Source: Candidatus Magasanikiibacteriota bacterium (GTDB taxonomy: Bacteria > Patescibacteriota > Patescibacteriia > Magasanikbacterales > GWA2-37-8). From it: 64,000 bases of DNA. The position numbers and the translations under genes are program-made. The stretch covers positions 3,179 to 67,178 of the forward strand of contig CALRIA010000003.1 of the NCBI GenBank assembly GCA_943359595.1, written 5' to 3'. Of the stretch, positions 6,957 through 60,878 are shown one piece after another; within the stretch, counting starts at the first letter, position 1; every line of letters begins with the position of its first letter. Under the pieces are notes generated by a model, which was given only the letters and a program-made list of their open reading frames with translations, had not been told where the DNA came from and did no database searches.

Positions 6957-8678
6957 ATGCTTTCAGCCAAAACACTAAAATCCGTATTGAATAAGTTAGA
7001 CAAAAAAGTCGGCAACCGTCAGCTAACTGAGGCACAAGAAAAGGCTGAAAATACTCACAAAACACTTGAAGAAGTGTTAATTTCAGATGCTCTAGTGGAG
7101 GAAAGTGAATTATACCAAAAAGCGGCCCTAGTTTTGAATGTGCCATTAATTAATTTAAAAGGCAAAGAAATCAAAAAAGATATTTTGAACCTCATTCCTG
7201 GTCCAGTGGCTGGAACACATCAGGTCGTGGCCTTTGAAAAAGACAAAGATCAGCTAAAGTTAGCCATGACTGACCCAACCGATATCCAAACAATTGAATT
7301 CTTACGACGTAAAACCGGTTTAGAACCAGTTGTCTATATCACTACCCCAAGCGATCTAAAAGATGCCGTTCGACGCTATCATGCTGAGTTAAAAGATGAG
7401 TTTTTGGTTGTTAAACAAGAGTCTGGCGAAGGTGTTGCTCAAGGAGATCTCAAAAAAGCCGCCGAAGAACTACCTATTATTAACATTGTAAACAGTATTT
7501 TAGAACATGCGGTATACGAAAATGCTTCAGATATTCATATTGAACCAGAAGAAAAAGAAGTAGCAATCAGATATCGCATTGATGGTATTTTAAAAGCCAT
7601 TATGACTCTTCCAAAAAATGTTCAGAGTGGCATTACAGCTAGAATAAAAATTCTATCCAACCTAAAATTGGATGAACATATGGTTCCTCAAGACGGTCGT
7701 TTCAAAATTCAGATCCAAGATGAAAAATTAGCTTTTCGTGTATCAATTATACCAGTTTATGATGGAGAAAAAATTGTTATGCGCTTATTGCGTGAAGGCA
7801 CAAAATCGCTTACCTTAGAAGAACTAGGTTTTTTGGAAAGTGCCAAAAATAAGCTAGAATCAGCTATAAAAAAGCCACATGGGATGATATTGGTTACCGG
7901 ACCAACTGGTTCGGGAAAAACTACCACGCTATACTCGGTGTTGGGAATATTAAACCAACCAGGAGTAAATATCTCAACAGTAGAAGATCCTATCGAATAT
8001 CGCGTCAATGGGGTTAACCAGAGCCAAATCAACCCTAAGGTTGGGTTTACTTTTGCCAATGGCTTACGCTCTCTCTTGCGCCAAGATCCAAACATCATAA
8101 TGGTTGGGGAAATCCGTGACCAAGAAACTGCTGACATTTCTATCAATGCCGCCATGACTGGTCACTTGGTACTTTCTACCCTACATACCAACGATGCCCC
8201 AACGACCTTGCCGCGTCTCATAGACATGGGGATTCCACCATTTTTAGTAGCGTATACGGTAAACATAATTGTCGCTCAACGTTTGGTGCGTAAAATTTGT
8301 CCTTATTGTAAAAAAGAATTTATTTTAGAAGGAGCCGCTCTAGATGAATTGGCCAAGATGTTTGAGATCAAAAAATTATCTGAACTTTTCAAACAAAATA
8401 TCAAAGATTTCGATACCAAAATTAATTCTTTGTCATTTTATCAAGGTGCAGGTTGTATGCGTTGTGGTCAAACTGGCTACAAAGGACGTATGGGAATTTA
8501 TGAAGTAATGGAAATTGACGAAGGCATGGCCAAAAAAATCAATGAACGTGCGCCAGCTGATGAAATAAAGAAATATGCCAGAGAGCACGGCATGACAACC
8601 ATGTTGGAAGATGGATTGGTCAAAGCAAAACTTGGTGTTACATCTATCAATGAAATATTACGCGTCACCAAAGAATAA
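6957..8678 (+). CDS. pilB: Type IV pilus assembly ATPase PilB/GspE family
   Basis: N-terminal GSPII_E_N-like region, Walker A 'GPTGSGKTTTLYS', Asp/His boxes, C-terminal tetracysteine 'CPYC...CMRCGQTG'. Confidence 0.9.
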   Translation: MLSAKTLKSVLNKLDKKVGNRQLTEAQEKAENTHKTLEEVLISDALVEESELYQKAALVLNVPLINLKGKEIKKDILNLIPGPVAGTHQVVAFEKDKDQLKLAMTDPTDIQTIEFLRRKTGLEPVVYITTPSDLKDAVRRYHAELKDEFLVVKQESGEGVAQGDLKKAAEELPIINIVNSILEHAVYENASDIHIEPEEKEVAIRYRIDGILKAIMTLPKNVQSGITARIKILSNLKLDEHMVPQDGRFKIQIQDEKLAFRVSIIPVYDGEKIVMRLLREGTKSLTLEELGFLESAKNKLESAIKKPHGMILVTGPTGSGKTTTLYSVLGILNQPGVNISTVEDPIEYRVNGVNQSQINPKVGFTFANGLRSLLRQDPNIIMVGEIRDQETADISINAAMTGHLVLSTLHTNDAPTTLPRLIDMGIPPFLVAYTVNIIVAQRLVRKICPYCKKEFILEGAALDELAKMFEIKKLSELFKQNIKDFDTKINSLSFYQGAGCMRCGQTGYKGRMGIYEVMEIDEGMAKKINERAPADEIKKYAREHGMTTMLEDGLVKAKLGVTSINEILRVTKE

Positions 8679-8682
8679 ATTT

Positions 8683-9792
8683 ATGGAGGAAAAAAGAAAT
8701 AAAATTCCATCACTACTCAAACAAAAACTAATACATTTTTTTAGCTTTTTTTTGAGTCATATTTCTTTTGTTCAAAAAATATTATTTGTATTTCATTTAC
8801 AAATAATGACTAAAGCCGGTTTATCAATAGTCGCCTCTTTAAAAATATTAAGCGAAGAACTAGAAAATAAACAATTTAAAATCATCATCAAAGAAATTAA
8901 AAGTGAAGTCGAAAAAGGCCGTCAACTAAGTGATGTATTAGCCGAATATCCAAAAGTTTTTCCGCCAATATATGTTACTATGATTGCTGCTGGCGAAGCT
9001 GCTGGTAAAATGGAGGAAGCTCTGACCCAAGTAGCAACTCAGATGAAAAAAAGTCATGAGCTATCTTCACATATTCGTGGTGCAATGATTTATCCAGCTG
9101 TCATACTAGTAGCCATTTTAGGAATATCGATTGAGATGGTCTTTTTTATTTTACCAAAAATTATGGTAATGTTTGAAGATTTTAAATCCGAGCTACCTTT
9201 GGCTACAAAAATTTTAATTACTACGGTAAAATTTACTCAAAATTACGGTATCTATTTATTAATTGGTATTATTTTTTCAATTATTTTATTTTTTTTGGCA
9301 CTCAAAAATATTACATTTAAAAAATCAGTTCATCATTTTACACTTAAACTTCCAATTTTTGGTAATATAATTAAAAAAATAAATCTAGCTCGCTTTACTT
9401 TAACTTTATCCTCCCTACTAGAAAGTACTATTCCAATCGTAGAAGCGGTAAAAATTACCGCTACTGTCCAAACTAACCTAATGTACCATGATAGTTTGAT
9501 GGAAGTCAGCGAAGCGCTCAAACGTGGCGATACTCTTTCCAAAATATTAATGAACTATCCAGAAATTTTTCCACCGATGGTTACTGAAATGATAATGGTG
9601 GGAGAAGAAGCTGGAAAGATGGACGATATGTTGAAAGAATTAGCCGAATATTATGGTAATGAAATTGACTCAACCATGAAAAATTTTTCTGTGATTATTG
9701 AACCGGTAATTATCGTAGTGCTAGGTTTGGTGGTTGCTGGTATTGCCGTGGCTGTAATTATGCCAATGTATTCTTTGGCTCAAAATTTCTAA
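8683..9792 (+). CDS. pilC: Type IV pilus platform protein PilC/GspF family
   Basis: Duplicated GspF-type domains ('EYPKVFPPIYVTMIAAGEAAGKMEEAL' and 'NYPEIFPPMVTEMIMVGEEAGKMDDML') and three TM segments. The start is taken at the ATG after the pilB stop rather than the upstream in-frame ATG at 8611. Confidence 0.85.
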   Translation: MEEKRNKIPSLLKQKLIHFFSFFLSHISFVQKILFVFHLQIMTKAGLSIVASLKILSEELENKQFKIIIKEIKSEVEKGRQLSDVLAEYPKVFPPIYVTMIAAGEAAGKMEEALTQVATQMKKSHELSSHIRGAMIYPAVILVAILGISIEMVFFILPKIMVMFEDFKSELPLATKILITTVKFTQNYGIYLLIGIIFSIILFFLALKNITFKKSVHHFTLKLPIFGNIIKKINLARFTLTLSSLLESTIPIVEAVKITATVQTNLMYHDSLMEVSEALKRGDTLSKILMNYPEIFPPMVTEMIMVGEEAGKMDDMLKELAEYYGNEIDSTMKNFSVIIEPVIIVVLGLVVAGIAVAVIMPMYSLAQNF

Positions 9793-9794
9793 AT

Positions 9795-10874
9795 ATGTTT
9801 AATAATAATCCATTTGAAGGGGCATTTGGCTTGGATATAGGTGACCTATCTTTAAAATTAGTACAATTATCTTCTCCTTCCACCTTCAGTTATGACCATC
9901 GCTACAAAATAGAACACATGACAAGTATTACCTTGCCACCTGGTTATATTGTTAATGGCGAAATCCAACAGCCAGAGATGGTTCGACACAAACTATTGCA
10001 ATTGCTTGGAAAAAGTGGGCATGGAGAAAAAATTAATTCACCGTGGGTAGTGGCTGATCTACCAGAACCAAAAACTTTTCTAACCTCAATAGAAATAGAT
10101 ATACCGCCAGAACAAATTACTCAAGAAGACATTGAATATCAATGCCAAAAACATCTTCCGTTTGATCTACAAGAAGCCTATTTAGATTGGCAAATAATTC
10201 CACTACATGAAAAAACGCGGTTTACCAGAGTTTTAATTGGCGCTACTCCAAAAACCATTGCTGATTCATATACTTATTTATTAGAGAGCGTCGGTCTTCA
10301 ACCGGTTGCTTTGGAGGTAGAATCTCTAGCTATCGCCAGGTCGCTAATTAATGAAGAAAATGTTGCTGGAGCAATTTTAGATATTGGAGCCACCAGATCA
10401 TCTGTAATTATCTATGATGCAGGCGGTGTACGCTTTAGCACTACCATAAATTTTTCTGGAGAAATAATTAATATGGCTCTTATCCAACAATTAAAAATTA
10501 CCTACGATGAGGCCGAAGATTTAAAAATTAAAAATGGAATTAATTATACAAAAGAAAAATCTGACTACCTAAAAATTATAGATGAGCTTATCAATAATTT
10601 GATAATCGAAATTAAAAAAACTATTATCTATTACCATGACCATTATCCTCAAACTACGCCAATTGAACAAGTTGAGCTTTGTGGCGGCATGGCTATGATG
10701 CAGAATTTACTACCAACTTTGGCTCGTCGATTAAAAATAAAATTTAAACTAGGCAATGCTTGGAAAAATATTAAAACTGAAAAACTAACGGATAGTCAAA
10801 AAAATCGTGAACTTACTATGGTTTCAGCAACCGGCTTAGCTCTACGCGCTATGATAAACCCATACAACGATTAA
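9795..10874 (+). CDS. pilM: Type IV pilus assembly protein PilM (actin-like)
   Basis: 'FGLDIGDLSLKLVQL' N-terminus, ASKHA-fold length, position after pilC. Confidence 0.75.
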   Translation: MFNNNPFEGAFGLDIGDLSLKLVQLSSPSTFSYDHRYKIEHMTSITLPPGYIVNGEIQQPEMVRHKLLQLLGKSGHGEKINSPWVVADLPEPKTFLTSIEIDIPPEQITQEDIEYQCQKHLPFDLQEAYLDWQIIPLHEKTRFTRVLIGATPKTIADSYTYLLESVGLQPVALEVESLAIARSLINEENVAGAILDIGATRSSVIIYDAGGVRFSTTINFSGEIINMALIQQLKITYDEAEDLKIKNGINYTKEKSDYLKIIDELINNLIIEIKKTIIYYHDHYPQTTPIEQVELCGGMAMMQNLLPTLARRLKIKFKLGNAWKNIKTEKLTDSQKNRELTMVSATGLALRAMINPYND

Positions 10875-10875
10875 T

Positions 10876-11403
10876 ATGTTACCATCTAAAATTAATATTC
10901 TATCACCTAACAAAAAAAGTCTTTTAGAAAAATTGATTAAATTTATTTTTTTTAAAGAAATGGTAGAAATTATTTTACTAGTAGCGGCCTTTCTATCAGT
11001 CGTTCTATTATGGAGTTGGTTTGCGTTACAAAATCAATTTAATGACTTATCTCAAAGTGCCATGCTCGTAAATAGGGAATATTCTCATTATAACCAAGAA
11101 ATTAGAAAAATAAATACTTTAATTAAACAATTTAATTCAGCCAACAAAAACTACACGCCACTAACAGCAAAAATTTTGGAGCTGATCGAAAAACTACCAA
11201 ATGAAATAAAAATAAATTCATTATCTATTAACCAAAAAACAAATATAATAACTATTTCTGGAATGGCCAAAACTCGCGGTTCATTATTGGACTATCAGGC
11301 AACATTAAAAGATTATTCCTGGCTAAAAACAGTCCAAACTCCAACTTCTCAGTTATTTCAAAAAGAAAATGTTAATTTTGAAATTAAAGCCAGCCAAAAA
11401 TAA
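10876..11403 (+). CDS. pilN: PilN-like pilus assembly protein
   Basis: Single N-terminal TM followed by a coiled-coil/periplasmic region. Gene order pilM-N-O. Confidence 0.6.
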   Translation: MLPSKINILSPNKKSLLEKLIKFIFFKEMVEIILLVAAFLSVVLLWSWFALQNQFNDLSQSAMLVNREYSHYNQEIRKINTLIKQFNSANKNYTPLTAKILELIEKLPNEIKINSLSINQKTNIITISGMAKTRGSLLDYQATLKDYSWLKTVQTPTSQLFQKENVNFEIKASQK

Positions 11404-11407
11404 AAAT

Positions 11408-11947
11408 ATGAAATTAAATACTGAAAAAAGAACTATTATAATACTGACGATTTTTTCGGTCATTACTTTGATTATAATTTTCCAAATAATATTTCCCACT
11501 ATTCGATATATTAAAAATCTAGAACAAGACACCAATAATCTTAGAGAATATTTAGAAAAAAAATACGAAAATACCAAGACAATACGCACCTCAAAGAAAA
11601 AAATTGAAGAAATTAAGTCAACAGTGGCCAAATATCCTGATTATTTATTTTATCATGGTGACGAACTCAAATTAATCACAACTTTAGAAAATATAGCCAC
11701 CAGAAACCAAATAATTCAAAAAATTGATAATTCAAACTTGGATAAGTTGGACGATAAACTCAATCTTTCTCTAACTTTAAATGGTGATTACCAAAATATC
11801 TTAAAGTATTTATCAGCGTTGGAAAAAGAAAATTATTATTTTATCATCACTAATCTACAGCTTTCTTCCGCTTTTAGTCCACAAAATAATAATACCAACG
11901 CTACTATAATGAATTTGGATCTAATACTATATGTCAATCAACACTAA
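11408..11947 (+). CDS. pilO: PilO-like pilus assembly protein
   Basis: N-terminal TM and coiled-coil segment. Start taken at the internal ATG after the pilN stop. Confidence 0.55.
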   Translation: MKLNTEKRTIIILTIFSVITLIIIFQIIFPTIRYIKNLEQDTNNLREYLEKKYENTKTIRTSKKKIEEIKSTVAKYPDYLFYHGDELKLITTLENIATRNQIIQKIDNSNLDKLDDKLNLSLTLNGDYQNILKYLSALEKENYYFIITNLQLSSAFSPQNNNTNATIMNLDLILYVNQH

Positions 11948-12290
11948 ATTTGACCAATTTAAAAAAACCAGGTATCTTAAACCGGCTAACAGATACACCA
12001 TCTGGAAAGTCTTTGGCATGTTAATAGTAGGATTACTTTTAGCCTGCACTATTTTTATATTTTATTTTATCTATCAATATTCTTATTTAACCCTTTCCAA
12101 TGCCAACGCTATCTTGACGCTTAATTCAAGTTTAGGGGTAGAAATAATTGATAGTAAAAATTTTTCTATTTCACAAGATATTATAAATTCGAAAAAAACT
12201 CTACTACCAATTCCAGATAAAATAAGAAATATTTTTTATTATGTCCAAACTACAAGCTCCACACCAACTTCCTCCACAAAAATCAAATAA
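11931..12290 (+). CDS. Hypothetical single-pass membrane protein (possibly pilus-associated)
   Basis: 119 aa with one TM helix and a Ser/Thr-rich C-terminus. Last gene of the pilus cluster. Confidence 0.45.
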   Translation: MSINTKFDQFKKTRYLKPANRYTIWKVFGMLIVGLLLACTIFIFYFIYQYSYLTLSNANAILTLNSSLGVEIIDSKNFSISQDIINSKKTLLPIPDKIRNIFYYVQTTSSTPTSSTKIK

Positions 12291-13419
12291 AAAAAACTTG
12301 CTTTTTATTTTAGGTAGAGAGACTACTTTATCTTTAGCCGAAATTAAAGCATTTTTTATAACAAAAAATATTAATTTTGATATTTTTTATTATAAAGAAA
12401 ATAAGCTTGTATTATCGGTTGAACAAAATATAGATATACCCGAAATGATGAAGCTGTTGGGTGGCACTATAAAAATTTGTGAAGTAGCTGACCAAATACA
12501 AACTCAAAAAGATGAACTAGCCAAATTTTTAAACCAATATATTTCAACTGGTAAAATAGAATTTTCAATAAACGGTTTTACTGCCTTAGGGATAGAAACA
12601 AAAAAAATTCTAAAACAATTAGGCAGATCCGCTCGTTACATTGAATCAAAAAATACAGCCACTGTGATTTTTAATAATCTAGTAAAGGGCGGAGCAGACA
12701 TCGAAATCTGTCACAATCAAGTTTTTATTACCAAAGCTATCCAACCAATCGAAGATTTTTCTAAGCGTGATTTTGGCCGACCGGGGCGTGATGATGAAAG
12801 TGGAATGTTACCACCAAAATTGGCTATGATAATGCTTAATCTAGCAACTCAAAAAAATGAAAGCATTATTTTTGATCCATTTTGTGGATCCGGTACAATT
12901 ATCACTGAAGCAATATTAATGGGTTATAAAAACCTTATCGGCTCAGATATATCTGAGACAGCTATAAGCGATACTATAAAAAATATTGAGTGGATAAAGA
13001 ATACCTTTAAAATTAATGACTCTAATTTAAGGATTAGTATTTTTCAATCCGATATTTTTGATATTACAAAAAAAATAGATAACGATTCAATCGACGCTAT
13101 CGTGGCCGAATCTTATTTGGGCAAACCATTAAGAGGTAGTGAGACAAAGCCAATGATAGAATCACAAGCAATGGAATTAAAAATGTTATATACCAATGCC
13201 TTTGCTAGATTTAAAAAAATATTAAAATCTGGCGGAATTGTAGTATTTATTATTCCACGTTTTCGCTATAAAGAAGATTGGATTAAAATTGAATGTGAAA
13301 ATGAAATACTAAAACATGGTTTTATAAATGATTCAATATTATCTGAAGAAAAACATCTATTATATTGGCGTACAGATCAACATGTTGGCCGAGAAATTTG
13401 GAGATTTAAAAAAATTTAA
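12241..13419 (+). CDS. THUMP-domain RNA (guanine-N2)-methyltransferase family protein (RlmL/TrmN-like)
   Basis: SAM-binding motif I 'FDPFCGSGTIITEAILMGY' with 'DPxCGSGT' is characteristic of THUMP-MTases. An N-terminal domain precedes it. Confidence 0.65.
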   Translation: MSKLQAPHQLPPQKSNKKNLLFILGRETTLSLAEIKAFFITKNINFDIFYYKENKLVLSVEQNIDIPEMMKLLGGTIKICEVADQIQTQKDELAKFLNQYISTGKIEFSINGFTALGIETKKILKQLGRSARYIESKNTATVIFNNLVKGGADIEICHNQVFITKAIQPIEDFSKRDFGRPGRDDESGMLPPKLAMIMLNLATQKNESIIFDPFCGSGTIITEAILMGYKNLIGSDISETAISDTIKNIEWIKNTFKINDSNLRISIFQSDIFDITKKIDNDSIDAIVAESYLGKPLRGSETKPMIESQAMELKMLYTNAFARFKKILKSGGIVVFIIPRFRYKEDWIKIECENEILKHGFINDSILSEEKHLLYWRTDQHVGREIWRFKKI

Positions 13420-25323: not shown

Positions 25324-27606
25324 TTATTTTTTAACTTGGATTTCCCCAACCATTTTCTTTATTTTATCAATAATATTTTTATTATTAGGGTTCAGATCTT
25401 TTACTTTATAATAATATTGTAAAGCAGTACTTTTATCACCCCTAGTTTCATATAACAAACCAAGACTATAAAGCGCATTGGAATAATTTGGCTGGATACT
25501 AACAACTTTACTCCAAATTTTTTCAGCTAAATCTCGATCACCAGTTCTATTGCGATTATATAATAAGCGGCCATAATTATATAAAGTTTCTGGATCAGAC
25601 TGATTTTGGCTAACTATTTTATCATAAACCTCAATCGCTTTATCATTTTTTTGAGTTTGTTCATAGGCGTTAGATAGCCCAATATATGCACCAAAATAAT
25701 TATTCTTTAATTCAATTGCCTTTTCGTAATTTTTAATAGCATCATCCCACTTACCCATAGTCCCATAATTATTTCCCAAACGCCACCAATGTGTTGGGTT
25801 GGTTGGTTCTAAATCTCTAGCTTGTTGCAGAGATTTTAATGCCCACTCCCGCGCTTCTGGCACCAAAGCAGAAGCATTTTCATACATGGTGGCCAAATTT
25901 TCCCATAGAATTACCGACTTAGGGGACAAATCGGTTGCATATTTGGCCTCATTTACGGCCTTAGCCATAATAGAGCTAATAGCTTGTACATCTGGAGAAG
26001 ACTGCTTACTAATATCTACCGCCTGATTCAAATAAATTTGCGCCAAAGCAGAATGATAAACATCGGAGTTCGGCCTTTTAATCAAAGCATCATTAATAAA
26101 AATTTCTGCCGTCTTGCTATTACCACTTAAAATAGCTTTAGCATAAGCTACCTCACCCAGATATAATCTAGCACCCCAAACAGTAATCATTACCAACCCA
26201 GTCATAACTACGATTAAACCAAAGGAAAAAGATAAGCTATATTGAGGAGTATCTTCGAGTGTCCATTCTTTTTCATGAGTAAAATGTCGATTATAAAATG
26301 AAAAACCAACGACTAATAAAGCTAACATAAACCACCAAGTCAACCACAATACTTGACTATAAAAAACTAAACACAAACCAATAGTTAAAACTACAAAAGC
26401 AATGGTAACTAAAAATGATTCAAATAAAATACTGTCTTTTTTAAAATTCTGTTCCGATGAAGCGGCAAAACGAATTTTGTTCCAAACTTCAAAAACGTGA
26501 CCAAGCGTTAAAAGTATCAAAAATATGAAAGCACAAATAAACAAAATTCCGCCTTCAGACAAGATACTAAGTATACTATTAAAAGGTTGATTAAAACGCA
26601 GCGACCAAGCAACTGGGTCAGAATTAAAAGAAATACTCCTAAATTGAGAAAAATCTACACCAAAAGTCCCCAAACCGCTACCCACAAAAAAATCTTTAAT
26701 ACTAGAAAAAATAGTGGCATAAGCAACCGACCAAGAAGGACTAAAACCAAGAGCCACTTCAGTTGGTACTGGCATCTGAATAAAATTTGGCGTACCAAAA
26801 ACTATAAATATAATAGTAAACACCAATAGAGCAAATAATGCTGACATCCATCCCAAATGAACTTCTCGAATAAAGCTAATACCAAACATCAATAATAAAA
26901 TGAGCGCGATTAGCAATATTATCCATAATATTTTAAAACTCAACATCACTAATACCCCTAAAGACAAAATACCAATTACAAATGACCAAATAATTCGGCC
27001 AAAATTTAAATTCTTTTTTATTAACTGGCCAAAAGATAAAACCAATAAACCCACTGCCCAAACACCAAAAACACTATTGATAGAATCTACAGTATTCCAA
27101 GATGGCCCAATTAATTTTATTAAGATTTTTATTTTAAATACAATCATTAATATAAACACTACTAACGAAACTAACCCTACCGCCAATAGCGCGTCCAAAA
27201 TACCACGCCATAGTTTCTCTGTTTTTATAAAATTGGCTACAATATAATAAAAACCAAAAAATAAAACTAATAAAACAAAATTTAAAGTAAAGTATTCCGC
27301 TCGGCCAAAAAAACTATCATAAACGTTGGCCGAAAATATTGCCGATAATAATCCAACTGCTCCCATGGTTAATATCGGAACATCAATCATGGTTTTGGTA
27401 AATTGGATTTTTTTAGTAAAAATAAATTTTGAAATCCACAGCAATATATTTAAAAGTACTAAACCACCAAACACATACTGTTTTGGTATGATATAAAAAT
27501 TATTAAGATTTTTGTCTAAAAATAAGGGGACTAGTACTATATTTAAAATCAAAAATATATATGAAAATATATCTATTATTTTACTAATACGCGATTGACT
27601 AATCAT
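25324..27606 (-). CDS. Wzy_C/O-antigen-ligase-like polytopic membrane protein with C-terminal TPR repeats (possible O-oligosaccharyltransferase)
   Basis: About 12 TM helices in the N-terminal 480 aa. The C-terminal 270 aa hold several TPR-like repeats ('WWRLGNNYGTMGKWDDAIKNYEKAIEL', and others). Confidence 0.55.
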   Translation of the reverse strand: MISQSRISKIIDIFSYIFLILNIVLVPLFLDKNLNNFYIIPKQYVFGGLVLLNILLWISKFIFTKKIQFTKTMIDVPILTMGAVGLLSAIFSANVYDSFFGRAEYFTLNFVLLVLFFGFYYIVANFIKTEKLWRGILDALLAVGLVSLVVFILMIVFKIKILIKLIGPSWNTVDSINSVFGVWAVGLLVLSFGQLIKKNLNFGRIIWSFVIGILSLGVLVMLSFKILWIILLIALILLLMFGISFIREVHLGWMSALFALLVFTIIFIVFGTPNFIQMPVPTEVALGFSPSWSVAYATIFSSIKDFFVGSGLGTFGVDFSQFRSISFNSDPVAWSLRFNQPFNSILSILSEGGILFICAFIFLILLTLGHVFEVWNKIRFAASSEQNFKKDSILFESFLVTIAFVVLTIGLCLVFYSQVLWLTWWFMLALLVVGFSFYNRHFTHEKEWTLEDTPQYSLSFSFGLIVVMTGLVMITVWGARLYLGEVAYAKAILSGNSKTAEIFINDALIKRPNSDVYHSALAQIYLNQAVDISKQSSPDVQAISSIMAKAVNEAKYATDLSPKSVILWENLATMYENASALVPEAREWALKSLQQARDLEPTNPTHWWRLGNNYGTMGKWDDAIKNYEKAIELKNNYFGAYIGLSNAYEQTQKNDKAIEVYDKIVSQNQSDPETLYNYGRLLYNRNRTGDRDLAEKIWSKVVSIQPNYSNALYSLGLLYETRGDKSTALQYYYKVKDLNPNNKNIIDKIKKMVGEIQVKK

Positions 27607-27791
27607 AAAAAATCATACTTTAAAAAAATATTTTTACCATCGATATTATACCACAAAAAGTTATTCACAACAATTAGAAAACTTTACTTTTTTTTAAACT
27701 TTTTTTAAAAAAAATTATGTTAATTTACTAAATTTTAAAACTTTCTTATAATAAGCATTGCCAATTTAATAGCAATACAAAAAATTAATTC

Positions 27792-27825
27792 AAAATCAAA
27801 TGTTTCACAGGAAACATTTGATTTT
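27792..27825. repeat. Palindrome copy 1: 15-bp stem with 4-nt loop, core AATGTTTC-N4-GAAACATT
   Basis: aaaatcaaatgtttc-acag-gaaacatttgatttt, read directly. Confidence 0.7.
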
Positions 27826-28090
27826 CTTAATCAGGAATTATAAATAATAAAAAAATCAACTTTTTAACAGATGACTATAATTAACAAACAGAATAACTTG
27901 CATAAAATTTAACTAACTATTAATTTTATTACTAAGTTTGCCAATTTTGTCACTTTGCAGATCAAAAATTTTATAGATAGCTGCTCTAATCAACGTTTTT
28001 ATACTTTCCTCCAATATCCAAATATTAAGAATACGCCTACATATATGTATAAATAAGTACACATACACGTCTTTAATAAATTTCTCTTAA

Positions 28091-28110
28091 AATGTTTCCT
28101 GTGAAACATT
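28091..28110. repeat. Palindrome copy 2: aatgtttc-ctgt-gaaacatt
   Basis: 8-bp arms, read directly. The loop is the reverse complement of the loop in copies 1 and 3. Confidence 0.7.
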
Positions 28111-28157
28111 CCACTGCTATTACCATTAATATCATTAAAATAAGATTAAATGGCTAG

Positions 28158-28183
28158 TAAAATGTTTCACAGGAAACATTTTA
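28158..28183. repeat. Palindrome copy 3: taaaatgtttc-acag-gaaacatttta
   Basis: 11-bp arms, read directly. Confidence 0.7.
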
Positions 28184-28349
28184 AAGAAAATACTAATATT
28201 AGCCATTTATAAATAAATTTGTATAGACTAGTGTATACAAATATCCACTTTTATATTAACTTATACCCAAAGTTATCCACATTATAATAAACAAAAAATA
28301 GGCCTTTAACCTATTTTTACCACAGCAATGCTAATATTGTGTTTTCTAG

Positions 28350-28421
28350 TGCCCCCAGCATGAATCGAACACACATTTTGCCCTTAGGACGGGCCTGTTC
28401 TATCCATTGAACTATAGGGGC
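28350..28421 (-). tRNA. tRNA-Arg (anticodon CCU); anticodon-stem assignment tentative
   Basis: Reverse complement 'GCCCCTA TA GTTC AATGGATA GAAC ... GTGTG TTCGATT CATGC TGGGGGC A'. The anticodon loop GTCCTAA contains CCT. One mismatch in the anticodon stem. Confidence 0.6.
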
Positions 28422-28528
28422 GATGAGAAGATTGTCGTTATTTTACAATAATTTTAAGCAATTTGCAAGAGTACGTATTGATAATCCTGCTCAAAAGTGC
28501 TAATATAGCTTAACTTAATCAAAAAAAT

Positions 28529-29575
28529 ATGGAAATGATCATTTTTTCAGTAATTATCGTTATTCTCACAATAATACTAATTGTTTTTTATAACAAACTA
28601 AAAGATCTTAGTGAACCAAAAGAAAATGGCGATCTGTTTGTAATGCTACAATCCCAAATCCAAGATCTGGGTAGACAATTTGAACAAAAAATAGGTGAGA
28701 CCCATAAAACCATGACAGACAATCAAACTTCTATGCATACGGCCATCCAAAGTCAATTTGGTCAAAGCGCAAAAATTATATCTGATGTTACTGAAAAGTT
28801 GACCAAACTAGATGAAACTAACAAACAAGTGATGAATTTTGCTGTTCAACTGCAAGGACTAGAGGATATTCTACAAAATCCAAAACAGCGCGGCATACTA
28901 GGAGAATATTATTTAGAAAATGTTTTGTTAAATGTTTTACCACCAGGCTCATTTCAGATGCAATACAAATTTAATGATGGTGATATTGTTGATGCCGTCG
29001 TGTTTGTAAAAGATAAAGTCATACCAATTGACTCCAAGTTTAGTTTGGAAAACTACAACCGAGCTGTTAGTGAAAAAGATCCCGCACGTAAAATAGAATT
29101 TGAAAATATTTTTAAAAATGACTTAAAAAATCGTATTAACGAAACTAGTAAGTATATAAAACCAAAAGAAGGAACAATGGATTTTGCTTTTATGTTTATT
29201 CCTTCCGAAGGAATTTATTATGATTTGCTTATCAATCAGGTCGGTTCTTTGAAAACCAACACTCACGATCTTATCGAATATGCTTTTAAAGAAAAACATG
29301 TGATTATTGTTTCACCAACTTCTTTTTTAGCTTATTTGCAAACCGTGCTACAGGGATTACGTGCATTACAAATAGAGGAATCAGCCAAAGAAATTCGACA
29401 ACGAGTCGAGGAATTGGGAAAACATTTATTAGCTTACGATGAATATCTAAAAAAATTGGGCAACAACCTTTCCACGACAGTAAATAGTTACAATGCGGCC
29501 AACAAAGAATTTGTTAAAATCGATAAAGACGTGGTGAAAATTGCCGGCGGTGAAAAAAAATCGAGTCACTCTTGA
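28529..29575 (+). CDS. rmuC: DNA recombination protein RmuC family
   Basis: N-terminal TM, long coiled-coil region, C-terminal RmuC nuclease-like domain ('DFAFMFIPSEGIYYDLL'). Confidence 0.65.
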   Translation: MEMIIFSVIIVILTIILIVFYNKLKDLSEPKENGDLFVMLQSQIQDLGRQFEQKIGETHKTMTDNQTSMHTAIQSQFGQSAKIISDVTEKLTKLDETNKQVMNFAVQLQGLEDILQNPKQRGILGEYYLENVLLNVLPPGSFQMQYKFNDGDIVDAVVFVKDKVIPIDSKFSLENYNRAVSEKDPARKIEFENIFKNDLKNRINETSKYIKPKEGTMDFAFMFIPSEGIYYDLLINQVGSLKTNTHDLIEYAFKEKHVIIVSPTSFLAYLQTVLQGLRALQIEESAKEIRQRVEELGKHLLAYDEYLKKLGNNLSTTVNSYNAANKEFVKIDKDVVKIAGGEKKSSHS

Positions 29576-32918: not shown

Positions 32919-33007
32919 TGGCGGAGAGGGTGAGATTCGAACTCACGAGGCCTTGCAGCCTACCGCTTTTCGAGAGCGGCACCTTCAACCAACTCAGACA
33001 CCTCTCC
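32919..33007 (-). tRNA. tRNA-Ser (anticodon CGA), CCA encoded
   Basis: Reverse complement 'GGAGAGG...CCGCT CTCGAAA AGCGG...long variable arm...GAGTTCGAATCTCACCCTCTCCGCCA'. Confidence 0.8.
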
Positions 33008-40860: not shown

Positions 40861-40967
40861 GGCTACGTGTCTTCTGGTGATCCCTTTCGGAATCCAACAA
40901 CCTTTCGATTGTTGACTAAACGAATAATACCAGAGACGGCGTAGCCATCTCTATATTCGTTTAGTTT
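40861..40967. repeat. Cluster of interleaved inverted repeats: GGCTACG..TCTGGT / ACCAGA..CGTAGCC, and ACTAAACGAATA / TATTCGTTTAGT
   Basis: Read directly. The second pair is a 12-bp perfect inverted repeat. Confidence 0.6.
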
Positions 40968-41075
40968 TTCGACCGTGCCCTGTGCATAACACAAAGTTTA
41001 GGTCTTTAAATTGTTGTGTGTATATTACCAAATAGTTGCCAAAAAATCAATAACACCAAGTAATAACCACCATTT

Positions 41076-42692: not shown

Positions 42693-44384
<1,692 letters not shown>

Positions 44385-55326: not shown

Positions 55327-56979
55327 ATGCAAATTGACGATAAAAAAATCAAACAGGTATTGTTGGATGGCAATTATGTTACTGCCGATGATATCACCAA
55401 AGCTGAAACCGCTATTAAAACTACTCAGGGTACAGTAGTAGACTGGCTTTTGTCATCTGAAATTATTAATAAAGATTTGTTAGGACAGGCTATAGCTGAA
55501 GCAGACAAAGTTAGCTACTCTGATTTAAATACCTATAAACCTAGCCAAGAACAAGTCCGTCTATTACCAGAAGATCTAGCCAAACAATTTCATGCTGTGA
55601 TATTTCGCCAAGAAGGTGACGAAATAATAGTGGCTACTGATGACCCAACTCAAGTTGAATTAACCAAAAAATTAAAAACTCTTTTTAAAGACAAAAAAAT
55701 AGTAACTACCTTTTCTTTTATCGAAGATATCGAAGAATCTTTTATTCATTATCTAAAAACTTTAGAGACACGTTTCAATGAAATTATAAAACAACAAAAA
55801 CGCATCGCCCCAGAGCTAATTGAACAAATTATTGATGATGCTGTCGCTTATCGAGCTTCTGATGTCCATTTAGAACCGCAAGAAAAAGAAGTAATAGTCC
55901 GCTTCCGTATCGATGGTGTAATGCAAGAAGCTGGACGTATCCCAAAAGATTATTATGGCAATATTTTAAACCGTATCAAAGTTCAGGCTCAACTACCAAT
56001 TGACGAACATTTTTCTGCTCAAGATGGGGCCGCCAGACAGGTGAGAGAAAAATATACTGTAGACATGCGTATTTCCATTCTACCAACTCTTAATGGAGAA
56101 AAAGTTGTAATTCGTCTTTTGTCTCAATACGTTCGCAGTTTTTCTTTTAGTGATTTAGGTCTATCTCAACACGATCAAGAATTACTTTTAAAAACAATCA
56201 ACAAACCATTTGGAATGATTTTAGTTACCGGCCCAACTGGTTCTGGGAAAACAACTTCACTTTACGCCTTATTAAAATTATTAAATAGTCCGGATGTTAA
56301 CATTACTACTATTGAAGATCCGGTCGAATATAAAATGGCTGGTGTTAATCAAATTCAAGTTAATCCACAGACCAACCTCACCTTCGCCAAAGGCTTGCGC
56401 TCTATTGTTCGTCAAGATCCAGATATTATATTAGTTGGTGAAATTCGTGATCAAGAAACAGCTGAAACAGCAGTGAACGCTGCACTTACTGGACATTTAT
56501 TACTTTCCACTTTTCATGCCAACGATGCGGCTACAGCGATACCGCGTCTTTTGGATATGGATATTGAACCATTTTTGCTATCATCTACTTTAGTAGTTCT
56601 CATCGCCCAACGTCTCGTACGAAAAATTTGCGATCAATGTCGTTATAGCGTCTCATTGAGCAAAGAGGAGATAAAAAAAACCATTTCACAAGATGTACAA
56701 AAATATTTCTCTGGAAAACATATTGTTTTATATAAAGGTAAAGGCTGTGCTGGCTGTGGCAACACTGGTTTTCGTGGTCGTACTGCCATTTATGAATTTA
56801 TCGAGGTCACTCCTGAAATTCAAGAATTAATTTTACAAAACCCTTCAACTGCTCAAATTTGGAAAATTGCCAGAAAACAAGGGTCGGTTACTTTGTTTGA
56901 AGATGGAATCGAAAAAGTAAAAAGTGGTACCACTTCTTTAGAAGAATTATTAAGAATGGCGGAACCTCCAAAATTTTAA
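55327..56979 (+). CDS. pilB: Type IV pilus assembly ATPase PilB/GspE family (second copy)
   Basis: Walker A 'GPTGSGKTTSLYA', N-terminal GSPII_E_N-like domain, C-terminal 'CDQC...CAGCGNTG'. Confidence 0.9.
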   Translation: MQIDDKKIKQVLLDGNYVTADDITKAETAIKTTQGTVVDWLLSSEIINKDLLGQAIAEADKVSYSDLNTYKPSQEQVRLLPEDLAKQFHAVIFRQEGDEIIVATDDPTQVELTKKLKTLFKDKKIVTTFSFIEDIEESFIHYLKTLETRFNEIIKQQKRIAPELIEQIIDDAVAYRASDVHLEPQEKEVIVRFRIDGVMQEAGRIPKDYYGNILNRIKVQAQLPIDEHFSAQDGAARQVREKYTVDMRISILPTLNGEKVVIRLLSQYVRSFSFSDLGLSQHDQELLLKTINKPFGMILVTGPTGSGKTTSLYALLKLLNSPDVNITTIEDPVEYKMAGVNQIQVNPQTNLTFAKGLRSIVRQDPDIILVGEIRDQETAETAVNAALTGHLLLSTFHANDAATAIPRLLDMDIEPFLLSSTLVVLIAQRLVRKICDQCRYSVSLSKEEIKKTISQDVQKYFSGKHIVLYKGKGCAGCGNTGFRGRTAIYEFIEVTPEIQELILQNPSTAQIWKIARKQGSVTLFEDGIEKVKSGTTSLEELLRMAEPPKF

Positions 56980-56988
56980 TTTTATCCC

Positions 56989-58515
56989 ATGAAACCGGAT
57001 AAAACAATGGACAATAAGATAACCTCTCCAAAAAAGAAATCTAACATTTTATCTTTTACTTTTGGTTTCACTGAAGAGAGCCAATATTTTGTAGAAAATT
57101 TATCAATGCTCTTGGCTTCCGGTATGGATATTATCGAAGCTTTAGAAGCGATTAAAGCCGAAATTAAATCTACTAAACTTATAGATATAATTGATGAATT
57201 GGTAGAAAATATTAATTCTGGTTTTAGTTTATGGCAATCTTTGGAGAAAACCAAATTACTACCACCACATATTATATCTTTAGTAAAAATCGGTGAAGAA
57301 AGTGGGCGATTACATGAAAGTTTGGCAGTTGTGGTAGTTCAACAAAATAAAAGCCAATCATTCAAGTCCAAAATACGGGCAGCCATGATGTACCCGGTAT
57401 TTGTAATGGGGGTAGCCATGACTGTTGGGATTGGCATTGCCTGGTTTATCTTACCTAAACTTTCTACAGTTTTTAGCCAACTAAATCTAAAATTACCTTT
57501 GGTCACTAGATTATTAATGAGTTTTGGCGCATTTTTATCACGCTACGGATCAATTGTAGTACCAACATTTATTATTAGTATTAGTATATTTTTCTATTTT
57601 CTATTTTTTTATCAAAAAACTAAATTTATCGGCCAAGCAATTTTATTTTCTATCCCAGGAATTAAAAACCTCATTCGCGAAGTAGAACTAGCACGTTTTG
57701 GTTATATCATGGGTACACTACTTGAAGCTGGGTTACCAGTGCTCGAAGCTTTGAACTCGTTAAAAGAGTCCGGTACTTTACGTGCCTATGGCAGAATATA
57801 TATACAATTAAAAGAAGGCATTGAAGAAGGAAAATCATTTGAAGAATGTTTTCATTCCAACCGCCACATAAAGAAACTTATCCCAACTACCATTCAGAGC
57901 TTAATTGCCGTCGGAGAACGCTCTGGCAGACTAGGAAAGATATTTTTAAATATTAGCGAGAACTACGAAAATAAAACTGAGCTAACTACCAAAAATTTAA
58001 GCGTAATTTTAGAACCGTTATTATTAGTAATTGTTTGGCTTGGAGTAGTGGCCGTAGCCATGGCGGTGATTTTACCAATTTATAGTTTAGTAGGTGGTTT
58101 AAATCAAAAACCTCAAGCTAGCAACCCACCTACTCCCACCGTAACTATTGTCGCCACACCGGTAATCAAAGTTAATAGTGCAGTCATAACCATTGGCACC
58201 CAAGGGATTGTTAATAATAGTTCAACACCTTCTTCGTTACAGACTTTAACACAAACATCGACCCCACCGGCAATTCCAACACTTACCTCCAGCATACCAA
58301 CAACAGGATTTTTAGAAGTATCACAAAATAAACTTGGCTATTTAAATATTCGTGCCACACCATCATCAAAATCTGAATTAATACGCAAAGCTTCTATCGG
58401 AGAAAAATTTAATTATATAGAAATTCAGGATGGATGGTATAAAATAATTTTATCTGCTGACCAATACGGCTGGGTCAGTTCGCAATATGTTCAAATTATT
58501 TCACCCACACTTTAA
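56989..58515 (+). CDS. pilC: PilC/GspF-family platform protein with a C-terminal Thr/Pro-rich linker and SH3b-like domain
   Basis: Two GspF-type repeats and three TM segments. After the last TM comes 'PTPTVTIVATP...TSTPPAIPTLTSS', then 'GYLNIRATPSSKSELIRKASIGEKFNYIEIQDGWYKI...GWVSSQYV', which is bacterial SH3-like. Confidence 0.8.
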   Translation: MKPDKTMDNKITSPKKKSNILSFTFGFTEESQYFVENLSMLLASGMDIIEALEAIKAEIKSTKLIDIIDELVENINSGFSLWQSLEKTKLLPPHIISLVKIGEESGRLHESLAVVVVQQNKSQSFKSKIRAAMMYPVFVMGVAMTVGIGIAWFILPKLSTVFSQLNLKLPLVTRLLMSFGAFLSRYGSIVVPTFIISISIFFYFLFFYQKTKFIGQAILFSIPGIKNLIREVELARFGYIMGTLLEAGLPVLEALNSLKESGTLRAYGRIYIQLKEGIEEGKSFEECFHSNRHIKKLIPTTIQSLIAVGERSGRLGKIFLNISENYENKTELTTKNLSVILEPLLLVIVWLGVVAVAMAVILPIYSLVGGLNQKPQASNPPTPTVTIVATPVIKVNSAVITIGTQGIVNNSSTPSSLQTLTQTSTPPAIPTLTSSIPTTGFLEVSQNKLGYLNIRATPSSKSELIRKASIGEKFNYIEIQDGWYKIILSADQYGWVSSQYVQIISPTL

Positions 58516-58519
58516 AATT

Positions 58520-58969
58520 ATGGGTAAAATAATTAAAAAAAATGGTTTTACACTTTTGGAACTACTTTTAGTAGTGGCTTTAATGGGTGTATTAGCCATC
58601 GTATCTGCTCCAATGTATCTATCTTTACAGGCAGAAAATGAAATGAGTATTACTTCGGTTACTATTGGTGATATTTTACATCGCGCTCAACTAAAATCGC
58701 AGGCGATTGATAGCGATTCTTCCTGGGGAGTAGAGATAACAAATGGATTGCTAATTATTTTTAAAGGATCGAATTTTATCAATCGCGACCAAACATTTGA
58801 TGAAAATTTTTCTTTAGCCAACACTATTAAATTATCCGGTTTAACAGAGGTTATTTTTGCTCCCTTATCTGGAATACCAAATATTGTCGGCGCAATTAAG
58901 CTACAACATTCAGACGGTCGCCAGTCACAACTAAGTATTAATGGAATGGGAATTATCAATATCCCATGA
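58520..58969 (+). CDS. Prepilin-type (class III signal) pseudopilin, GspH/FimT-like
   Basis: 'KKNG|FTLLELLLVVALMGVLAI' prepilin cleavage/methylation motif. Start placed at the Met that gives a short leader. Confidence 0.75.
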   Translation: MGKIIKKNGFTLLELLLVVALMGVLAIVSAPMYLSLQAENEMSITSVTIGDILHRAQLKSQAIDSDSSWGVEITNGLLIIFKGSNFINRDQTFDENFSLANTIKLSGLTEVIFAPLSGIPNIVGAIKLQHSDGRQSQLSINGMGIINIP

Positions 58970-58973
58970 TAAT

Positions 58974-59447
58974 ATGATAAGTATTAAAAAGAAAAAACAA
59001 TTTGAACCAAACGGTTTTTCTTTAATAGAAATTGTTTTATCTAGCGGTTTATTAGGATTGTTTGCCTTGGCTTTTTTAGGAGTGCTCGGCTTTAGCCAAG
59101 AAAGTACTTTGCGCGCTGGACAGCGTAATCGGGCCATTTTTTTGGCCGAAGAAGGTGTAGAGGCCACTCAAAGTATTCGAGATGAAAATTTTGCCAATTT
59201 AATCGCTGGTGATCATGGTCTAAAAACTGATACTAAATGGAATTTCACCAATCAGCCGGATATCATAGACGGCTTTACACGCACATTAACAATAGCTGAT
59301 GTCAATTCCCAAACCAAACAAGTTACTTCACAAGTAGCTTGGAAACAATCTGGAGGAAATCAGGTGTCAGTATCATTTTCAACCTTATTTACCGATTGGC
59401 GTACAGCAACTAGCACTGGAACTAGTACGCAATTTTGTGGAGTTTAA
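58974..59447 (+). CDS. Prepilin-type minor pilin
   Basis: 'EPNG|FSLIEIVLSSGLLGL' N-terminus. Confidence 0.7.
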   Translation: MISIKKKKQFEPNGFSLIEIVLSSGLLGLFALAFLGVLGFSQESTLRAGQRNRAIFLAEEGVEATQSIRDENFANLIAGDHGLKTDTKWNFTNQPDIIDGFTRTLTIADVNSQTKQVTSQVAWKQSGGNQVSVSFSTLFTDWRTATSTGTSTQFCGV

Positions 59448-59448
59448 T

Positions 59449-59955
59449 ATGTATTATTTAAAAAACAACCGAGGTTTTACTTTAATTGAATTATTATTAT
59501 ACACCGTGATAGCTGCCGGGTTACTTTTATCTATCACCGCCATGATCGCGCTACTCAGTCAATCTAGAATAAAAAACCAGACTATCAGTACGGTAGAACA
59601 ACAAGGAACTCAAATATTACAAATCATCAACCAAGAAATTAGAAATTCCTCAATCGTAATTTCACCCGCAAATGGCGTCAGTGGAACCACTTTACAATTA
59701 CAAGATATTAATGGAAAAAATACAACTTTTAATTTATCTAGTAGTACACTAAACGAAACAAAACTTAATCAGACAACACCAATTTCTTCCAATAATATTA
59801 TTGTAAGCAACCTAAAATTTTTAAATTTAACTCCAGACAATATCCACAATTCCATTAAAATAAATTTTACTTTAAATTATAATAATATTGCCAGCCGAAT
59901 CGAATATAATTATAGTCAAACTTTTTATGACACAGCCACGCTACGACAACCTTAA
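59449..59955 (+). CDS. Prepilin-type minor pilin
   Basis: 'NNRG|FTLIELLLYTVIAAGLLL' N-terminus. Confidence 0.7.
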   Translation: MYYLKNNRGFTLIELLLYTVIAAGLLLSITAMIALLSQSRIKNQTISTVEQQGTQILQIINQEIRNSSIVISPANGVSGTTLQLQDINGKNTTFNLSSSTLNETKLNQTTPISSNNIIVSNLKFLNLTPDNIHNSIKINFTLNYNNIASRIEYNYSQTFYDTATLRQP

Positions 59956-60340
59956 TAAAAATGGATTCGCCGTCTTGATCGGCGTCTTGATTGTCGGCGC
60001 TTTTGGCACGGCAGTAGTTTTGTATTTAATATTGTCAGGTATATATTCTTATCAAAATAGTTTTATTTTAGAGCAATCTAATATTGCCAAGACAACGGCC
60101 AATGCTTGCGCTGAAATCGCTTTAAATAAAATCCAGCTATGTTCTTCAACTGTTGGAATAGGAAGTGCTCAAATTGGAAGTTCCACCTGTAACTATGAAA
60201 TTATCAACAATGGCAACCAATCCAGAACTATACAAGTATCTTCACAAATAGGCACAATTACTAGAAAAGCAAAAATATTGGTTGACAAAATCAATCCAAA
60301 AATTACAATTAATTCTTGGCAGGAAGTAGCCTCATTCTAA
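59927..60340 (+). CDS. PilX-like minor pilin (N-terminal PilX_N-type helix)
   Basis: 'NKNGFAVLIGVLIVGAFGTAVVLYL' resembles the PilX N-terminus. Overlaps the previous gene by about 29 nt. Start uncertain. Confidence 0.55.
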   Translation: MTQPRYDNLNKNGFAVLIGVLIVGAFGTAVVLYLILSGIYSYQNSFILEQSNIAKTTANACAEIALNKIQLCSSTVGIGSAQIGSSTCNYEIINNGNQSRTIQVSSQIGTITRKAKILVDKINPKITINSWQEVASF

Positions 60341-60423
60341 CCGACACCTTAACTCTATAATTAAAAAATGATATAATGATAAGTAGTATCAAAAACTTTA
60401 AAAAATTAATTATTTATATAAAT

Positions 60424-60864
60424 ATGAAAAATATAAACAAAAAAGGCTTTACACTTTTGGAAATTTTATTGGTTGTTGCAGCTATCGCCATCTTAGCCGG
60501 CATAGTAATCGTTGCTATTAACCCTGGCAAACAATTGGCCGATACTCGTAACGCCCAAAGACAAGTTAATGTGAATACAATTTTAAACGGCGTCTACCAA
60601 TATTCTATTGATAATAAAGGCGTGCTGCCCGTTGGCATCACCCAAACTCCTACTGAAATCTGTAAGACTGGTGGCAATTGTCTTAATTTAATAGACCTGT
60701 CAGTTCTAACTACTAATGAAACATATCTAACCGCCATTCCAACTGATCCAACCGGCGTAAGTGCCAACGGCACTGGTTATAAAATTCAACAAAGTGTCAA
60801 CGGTCGCATTACCATCTCTGCACCTTCAGCCGAACAAGGGAAAACCATCAGTGTTACCAGATAA
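60424..60864 (+). CDS. pilA: Type IV pilin, PilA-like (candidate major pilin)
   Basis: 'MKNINKKG|FTLLEILLVVAAIAILAGIVIVAINPG' is a classic type IVa pilin N-terminus. 146 aa. Confidence 0.8.
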   Translation: MKNINKKGFTLLEILLVVAAIAILAGIVIVAINPGKQLADTRNAQRQVNVNTILNGVYQYSIDNKGVLPVGITQTPTEICKTGGNCLNLIDLSVLTTNETYLTAIPTDPTGVSANGTGYKIQQSVNGRITISAPSAEQGKTISVTR

Positions 60865-60878
60865 TTATTTATAAAAAA

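Follow-up and report, generated by a model that had tools for sequence, protein, structure and literature searches.

A conserved cluster of probable parS-type sites with an asymmetric centre in the rmuC spacer of a Magasanikbacteria genome

What are three copies of one perfect palindrome doing in a single AT-rich, non-coding spacer of a Magasanikbacteria genome? A sequence-only reading of the window, i.e. the whole 64-kb stretch of DNA that was analysed, had regarded the copies either as binding sites for one dimeric regulator or as hairpin-forming RNA elements. We consider it probable, at roughly 0.8, that they constitute a conserved cluster of parS-type ParB loading sites. parS is the landmark from which bacterial chromosomes are organised and segregated. 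A conserved cluster of three such sites would mean that the ordinary ParB-parS machinery, probably along with SMC, is very probably at work in an ultra-small CPR lineage that has not been cultured, and in fragmentary metagenome-assembled genomes (MAGs) it would help to locate the origin-proximal domain.

The three copies were read directly from the sequence, and their coordinates and arm lengths (Table 1) agree with the sequence-only reading. Each copy contains a perfect 20-bp palindrome, AATGTTTC-N4-GAAACATT, at 27799-27818, 28091-28110 and 28161-28180, respectively. Copy 2 had been described as inverted, with a CTGT centre as opposed to ACAG, and this was borne out, as it is the inverted duplicate of copy 3. 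Together with their flanks, copies 2 and 3 form a 36-nt inverted duplicate (86% complementary) into which 10 bp on either side of the palindrome were taken, and copies 1 and 3 have an identical 22-mer in common. Gene calls likewise agree with the earlier description of an AT-rich spacer that holds tRNA-Arg and separates a divergently arranged TPR membrane-protein gene from rmuC. When up to two mismatches were allowed, AATGTTTCNNNNGAAACATT was matched three times in 64 kb, each time at one of these copies. The chance expectation is 0.11, and 0 of 100 shuffled sequences gave three matches. The proviso of the sequence-only reading that the motif might occur only locally and correspond to terminator hairpins does not apply, as a local cluster is the normal distribution of parS sites. 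The half-site AATGTTTC occurs 12 times in the window versus 5.9 expected, and because six of the 12 occurrences belong to the three sites, there is no dispersed half-site signal.

Table 1. Features of the spacer, of the remainder of the window and of the corresponding spacers of relatives (positions are those of the window unless a relative is named)
Feature	Position	Strand	Sequence or site type	Remarks
Palindrome copy 1	27792-27825		AAAATCAAATGTTTC-ACAG-GAAACATTTGATTTT	15-bp arms
Palindrome copy 2	28091-28110		AATGTTTC-CTGT-GAAACATT	8-bp arms
Palindrome copy 3	28158-28183		TAAAATGTTTC-ACAG-GAAACATTTTA	11-bp arms
parS-like site 1	27801..27816		TGTTTCACAGGAAACA	within extended palindrome 27792-27825
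parS-like site 2	28093..28108		TGTTTCCTGTGAAACA	site 3 inverted; in duplication arm 28080-28115
parS-like site 3	28163..28178		TGTTTCACAGGAAACA	in inverted-duplication arm 28156-28191
Probable decayed partial duplicate	27852..27870	+	AAAATCAACTTTTTAACAG	84% identity to left arm of site 1
Non-coding spacer bearing the parS-like sites	27607..28528			922 bp; GC 0.25; second-largest spacer in the window
TPR membrane-protein gene	25324-27606	-		left border of spacer
rmuC	28529-29575	+		right border of spacer
tRNA-Arg(CCT)	28349-28421			inside the 922-bp spacer
Bidirectional intrinsic terminator	28293-28318			just downstream of tRNA-Arg (- strand); hairpin with A-run and T-run
Conserved block	28218-28281			~40 bp right of site 3
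DnaA-box-like 9-mer	28273-28281		TTATCCACA	in spacer
DnaA-box-like 9-mer	28241-28249		ATATCCACT	in spacer
DnaA-box-like 9-mer	27661-27669		TTATTCACA	in spacer
tRNA-Ser(CGA)	32919-33007			border of probable mobile element
tRNA-Ser(TGA)	44267-44352			border of probable mobile element
LOOT RNA (Rfam RF03000)	40879-41004	-		84.5 bits versus gathering score 46.4; inside putative integrated element
parS-like spacer sites, L121			two perfect sites
parS-like spacer sites, L257			three perfect sites
parS-like spacer sites, L128			AGTTTCGCGTGAAACA and TGTTTCACGTGGAACA
parS-like spacer sites, L131 and L126			arm variants
parS-like spacer sites, L255			three ACGG
parS-like spacer sites, L253			ACGG, ACGG, CCGT, ACAT
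parS-like spacer sites, L123			ACAG, ACGG, ACGG
parS-like spacer sites, L236			ACAG, ACAA, ACAA
parS-like spacer sites, L258			two ACAT
parS-like spacer sites, L260			one CTGT
Conserved block in relatives	L121 9612; L123 9573; L253 3314; L255 3576; L126 9382; L131 9636; L257 2901; L258 8801; L260 9509

No known operator had been matched to the palindromes earlier, yet their 16-bp core is parS at 14 of 16 positions. Compared with canonical chromosomal parS, TGTTTCACGTGAAACA, the core TGTTTCACAGGAAACA is mismatched only at positions 9-10; in the inverted copy 2 the mismatches fall at positions 7-8, and the 14/16 match holds for all three copies. TGTTTCACGTGAAACA is the consensus chromosomal parS in structural work on ParB (10.1101/724823), and the parS consensus is common to chromosomal Par systems "whatever the species" (PMC5450999). 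A search for parS with up to three mismatches returned three matches in 64 kb versus 0.46 expected, all of them at these sites. All three copies have the inverted-repeat form of parS (TGTTNCACGTGNAACA), although their deviation at the central CpG is atypical. Every site in the window is composed of one perfect half-site, TGTTTCAC, and one altered half-site, TGTTTCCT, and the outer 12 bp together with the AA/TT flanks are perfect in each copy. With AG in place of GT at positions 9-10, the two halves of the site no longer match and the central CpG is lost. Apart from this asymmetric, CpG-less and lineage-specific centre, nothing about the cluster is unusual, and it is otherwise a textbook element. 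The earlier view of the copies as repeated sites for one dimeric DNA-binding protein thus survives as a prediction, but not with a regulon-type transcription factor as that protein: the core is parS, and the expected binder is ParB. The exact sequence TGTTTCACAGGAAACA was matched nowhere in the searched literature. Restriction-site avoidance was considered as a reason for the ACGT-to-ACAG change and rejected, given that CACGTG occurs 6 times versus 4.8 expected and that the observed/expected ratio of ACGT (0.86) is similar to that of other 4-mers.

RmuC homologues, the best of them 94% identical, place the window in Candidatus Magasanikbacteria (Patescibacteria); an identical RmuC is not on record. 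The rmuC neighbourhoods of 11 distinct relatives, with RmuC 77-94% identical to that of the window, were compared; one of these loci (L236) was taken from a metagenome scan with ATGTTTCACRGGAAACAT. GCA_026396515.1, GCA_036172155.1, GCA_001784435.1 and the 963-kb contig Ga0265297_10000003 are relatives. Conservation of the locus is clade-wide. The order of TPR gene, spacer (~0.8-1.7 kb) and rmuC is kept in 11/11 relatives, and the syntenic spacer of every one of them contains one to four parS-like sites at up to two mismatches. Including the window, the spacers of the 12 genomes carry 31 sites in 13,606 bp, versus none in 224,876 bp outside. On the strength of this synteny and site content, the spacer of the window is a putative conserved parS hub of the clade. 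Perfect canonical parS is present in the spacers of three genomes, with L121 and L257 having perfect canonical sites only. The ACAG/CTGT double variant is rare, but four members of the family have it (the window, L123, L236 and L260), one of which is distant (RmuC identity 77%, GC 0.43). Site 3 is the orthologous and most conserved site of the window, and in alignments it lies opposite canonical or near-canonical parS of L121, L123, L126, L253, L255 and L236. At a distance from the TPR gene start comparable to that of site 1, namely 124-195 bp, a site is also present in L121, L123, L253, L131 and L255. The number of sites, their spacing and their position relative to the TPR gene and rmuC differ among relatives, and the spacer around the sites is barely alignable with the relatives' spacers. 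As would be expected of parS, related genomes have kept the site, whereas the non-coding DNA on either side of it has diverged.

Among the 31 sites there are 39 mismatches to parS, which by symmetric position number 4 at position 1, 1 at position 5, 5 at position 6, 17 at position 7 and 12 at position 8. No site has a mismatch at positions 2-4, and 29 of the 39 mismatches are found at the central positions 7/10 and 8/9. All 39 break the palindrome, and none is compensated. Since the mismatches are uncompensated and concentrated at the centre, they point to two protein-contacted half-sites and not to a selected nucleic-acid stem.

The palindrome pattern given by the sequence-only reading was scanned against one genome per species (185,579 species). 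Matches were found in Alphaproteobacteria, Clostridia, Bacteroidota, Spirochaetota, Actinomycetota and others, often as clusters of 2-4. The pattern is parS with AA/TT flanks, because ACGT occupies the centre of 133 of 157 matches. A ParB profile was then built from 76 ParB ORFs of the scanned loci and applied with a cut-off of E<=1e-10. It detected a ParB ORF in 49 of 120 canonical-pattern loci, for which the retrieved stretch was 8 kb or less. The metagenome scan with ATGTTTCACRGGAAACAT yielded at least 120 loci across all G+C ranges; among the matches listed, the centres were ACGG/CCGT in 136 cases and ACAG/CTGT in 7, and a ParB-profile ORF was present in 32 of 120 loci with an ACRG centre variant. 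A ParA Walker motif is adjacent in many of the centre-variant loci. With both scans pooled, the median distance from site to ParB is ~800 bp (81 ParB-bearing loci). In other bacteria the motif thus accompanies parA-parB operons, and the ParB-bearing loci from the scans all belong to non-CPR bacteria.

Two further loci may be recorded here. L175 1-12305 (ERZ808242 NODE-795, GC 0.46) is an unusually dense parS array, with 14 parS-like TGTTTC-N4-GAAACA sites of mixed centres (ACGT, ATGT, ACGA, CCGT, ACAT, ACAG and ACTG) in 12 kb, and the 12-kb stretch has no ParB gene. L198 675-1493 (Ga0180009_10035734, GC 0.34) carries four ACGG-centre parS sites in the same orientation within ~800 bp. The flank of its first site resembles that of site 3 of the window (blastn, 86% over 44 bp). 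L198 may come from a CPR relative that is more distant and in which the surrounding genes differ.

The cluster may be compared with characterised sites. The canonical parS sites of Bacillus subtilis Spo0J and Caulobacter ParB are, like those of the window, few and clustered 16-bp inverted repeats. Orthologous sites in close relatives have the perfect consensus, and the window shares with it the perfect TGTTTCAC half-site. Unlike canonical parS, the sites of the window have AG at positions 9-10, are asymmetric and CpG-less, and have no parAB operon nearby. The sole chromosomal parS of Thermus thermophilus HB27, TGTTTCCCGTGAAACA, has an ACGG centre and was bound by ParBc in EMSA (PMC4409726); it is also tabulated in PMC7022226 (Table 1). 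It is likewise asymmetric, with position 7/10 changed in one arm, and it is the dominant site type in L123, L253, L255 and many metagenomic parAB-linked loci. The window differs from it by one extra change at position 9 (ACGG to ACAG) and by having three sites, whereas the single Thermus parS lies beside parAB. For all sites of a lineage sharing one deviation, the Pseudomonas-type parS, TGTTCCACGTGGAACA, is a precedent, and co-adaptation of this lineage-wide variant with ParB has been discussed (PMC5450999). In Pseudomonas, positions 5 and 12 are changed symmetrically, with the palindrome and the central CG both preserved, whereas the change in the window is one-sided and central. The Noc-binding site (NBS) of Firmicutes, TATTTCCCGGGAAATA, is a related 16-bp palindrome, and the altered half-site TGTTTCCT of the window has the NBS-type C at position 7. 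In NBS, each half-site has A at position 2 together with C at position 7 (TATTTCCC-GGGAAATA; 10.1101/724823), and Noc is known only in Firmicutes (10.1101/724823). Identity with NBS was rejected: in the window, position 2 is the parS-type G in all arms, and the C at position 7 is confined to one arm, the altered one, in which position 8 is T.

It is unlikely that the sites are weakened or decaying relics, in which central mutations have largely inactivated an ancestral hub while segregation proceeds via sites elsewhere or via none. Such decay would scatter mutations, but family-wide none has reached positions 2-4, and in all three copies of the window no base of the outer 12 bp or of the AA/TT flanks is altered, while the spacer around them is barely alignable. 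Relics might be suspected from the location of both substitutions at the centre, where Burkholderia ParBc1 no longer binds once positions 7-10 or 8-9 are changed symmetrically (PMC5450999), and the same change in three copies is partly explicable by duplication in place of selection. Duplication was nevertheless still making new variant copies, and the double variant has been kept in four genomes, the distant one among them. An operator for a lineage-specific dimeric transcription factor, controlling the divergent promoters of the TPR operon and rmuC, is very unlikely. The sites do fall within the divergent promoter region, and several sigma-70-like hexamer pairs are near, though not in significant number (13 versus 8.6 +/- 2.9 in shuffles); a regulatory side effect is possible as well, since chromosomal ParB can itself silence nearby genes (PMC7022226). 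The motif, however, is pan-bacterial parS and not lineage-specific, close relatives have perfect canonical parS at the same place, and the variable number, spacing and position of the sites are unlike a promoter-fixed operator. Nor does a regulon emerge, as no further copy lies upstream of other genes or elsewhere in the 64-kb window or in ~225 kb of the relatives' DNA outside the spacers.

The suggestion of hairpin-forming RNA elements fared no better, and RNA or DNA hairpins that, for example, terminate transcription or insulate the TPR operon from the tRNA genes have very little probability. Every palindrome does fold (z-scores -3 to -6), but as any palindrome would, with AT-rich stems that contain only 3 G-C pairs. 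Copy 1 resembles a terminator on the - strand, where its 15-bp stem (-15.6 kcal/mol) has a T-rich tail; it alone passes a lax terminator scan, whereas copies 2 and 3 have no U-tail. The tRNA moreover has its own bidirectional terminator, the stem of which covaries among relatives, in contrast to the uncompensated substitutions at all of the parS-like sites in the 12 genomes. Rfam at gathering thresholds returned no family at the palindromes, the window having tRNAs and one LOOT RNA, and a permissive Rfam scan of the spacer gave only far-sub-threshold matches to miRNA precursors, which are due to the inverted duplication of copies 2 and 3. Finally, the spacer might be oriC and the palindromes origin-associated elements, a reading with next to no probability. 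The spacer is long and AT-rich, with the conserved DnaA-box-like motif TTATCCACA and at least one weaker box beside site 3. Against this, dnaA and dnaN are not in the window, and DnaA-box-like 9-mers are not enriched in it (31 versus 21.8). Left as well as right of the spacer, and whichever strand the genes are on, the GC3 skew of the + strand is -0.16 to -0.21 (side coefficient -0.013), the cumulative skew is monotonic, and the genes right of the spacer mostly point towards it. The strand-corrected skew and the gene orientation therefore led us to reject the spacer as oriC. The skew puts the whole window on one replichore and the origin past its right end, at least 36 kb from the spacer.

We thus return to parS-type loading sites as the preferred reading. 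In the CTP-clamp model, ParB bound at parS binds CTP, closes and slides onto the flanking DNA, and new dimers replace it. On this model, each 16-bp site of the window would be recognised by a ParB dimer through two helix-turn-helix domains, one per half-site; the dimer would close as a CTP clamp, slide off and be replaced by the next. A partition complex would be built over the neighbourhood, moved by ParA, and would load SMC, and three sites within 380 bp would make a strong ParB loading zone. We infer that the lineage encodes ParB, that this ParB binds the ACAG variant and that all of the downstream steps occur. No ParB or ParA was found in the 64-kb window by signature motifs, a local ParB HMM or Pfam scans, nor within +/-4-10 kb of the spacer in any relative's locus examined, and SMC is likewise absent from the window and from the surroundings of the relatives' spacers. 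The searched literature contained nothing on ParB or parS of Patescibacteria.

The central CpG is conserved in characterised chromosomal parS, and because the G9-to-A change destroys it, a canonical ParB might bind the sites of the window weakly. Positions 7/10 are partly permissive in several species (PMC5450999), and a GTTTCAC half-site alone is bound by some ParBs (PMC7022226). The 36-nt inverted duplicate and the shared 22-mer suggest that the same two-base change is present in three copies partly because of local duplication, by which the ACGT-to-ACAG change would have spread at least in part. The persistence of ACAG and its recurrence in relatives suggest that the ParB of the lineage tolerates it. 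In part of the Magasanikbacteria there are multiple asymmetric sites per genome, TGTTTCAC-GG/AG/AA/AT-GAAACA, with several genomes lacking the central CpG. Tentatively, and with more doubt than confidence, we propose a centre-drifted centromere in this part of the group, with a possibly co-adapted ParB and a parS hub at a fixed locus that is away from parAB and beside a conserved block of palindrome and DnaA-box-like motif. Co-adaptation may have proceeded by a relaxed or shifted ParB specificity at positions 7-10, or by loading that is driven essentially by one canonical half-site. If true, a reduced CPR genome would provide a natural case of evolving centromere and ParB specificity. The family-wide changes of the four central bases, including CpG loss and the one-sided ACAG, are a small natural experiment on what ParB needs of parS.

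The block near site 3 (Table 1) is conserved in 12/12 genomes. It is composed of a 24-bp palindrome, TTTGTATA(G/C)ACTAGT(G/C)TATACAAA, followed by ACTTATACCCAAAGTTATCCACA. The palindrome is almost invariant across genomes, most of its pairs being without change; where L257 (TTTGTGTACGCTAGCGTACACAAA), L258 and L260 differ, paired changes preserve its symmetry, and L128 and L258 carry a duplicate of it. The block could be a second protein-binding site or a small RNA made up of a 5' hairpin, a conserved single strand and the terminator, and with so many invariant pairs covariation favours neither. Of the DnaA-box-like 9-mers in the spacer, TTATCCACA is exact in 7/12 genomes and has at most one mismatch in most of the others, and L253 and L257 have 4-6 such 9-mers each. 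These could represent a DnaA-box cluster or a DnaA-regulated promoter, although DnaA binding is no better than a guess because TTATCCACA is embedded in the longer conserved block. Window positions 28314-28341 are the remnant of a lost tRNA gene: ~28 nt align to the tRNA-Ala(CGC) of relatives, in which this gene is directly downstream of tRNA-Arg(CCT) on the - strand.

Other features of the window and of its relatives were observed in passing. A probable integrated mobile element occupies ~33.1-44.4 kb between two tRNA-Ser genes that are only ~1.5 kb apart in L123. It encodes an Mrr-type nuclease, RloB with an AAA_21 ATPase, a rolling-circle Rep (REP_ORF2-G2P) and, directly adjoining the tRNA, a large serine recombinase, and GC skew is locally positive within it at 41-44 kb. 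In the near-identical contigs L128 and L129 of the closest relative, the same defence cassette (HTH protein, HinfI-like endonuclease, two DNA methyltransferases and ThsB-like TIR protein) is found in opposite orientations (L128 13789-17638 versus L129 13509-17358), which suggests that it is invertible or was recently re-inserted. The window also contains two type IV pilus/T2SS-like clusters, at 6957-13419 and 55327-62528, with T2SSE, T2SSF, PilM, PilN and pilin-like proteins, and clusters of this kind are typical of Patescibacteria.
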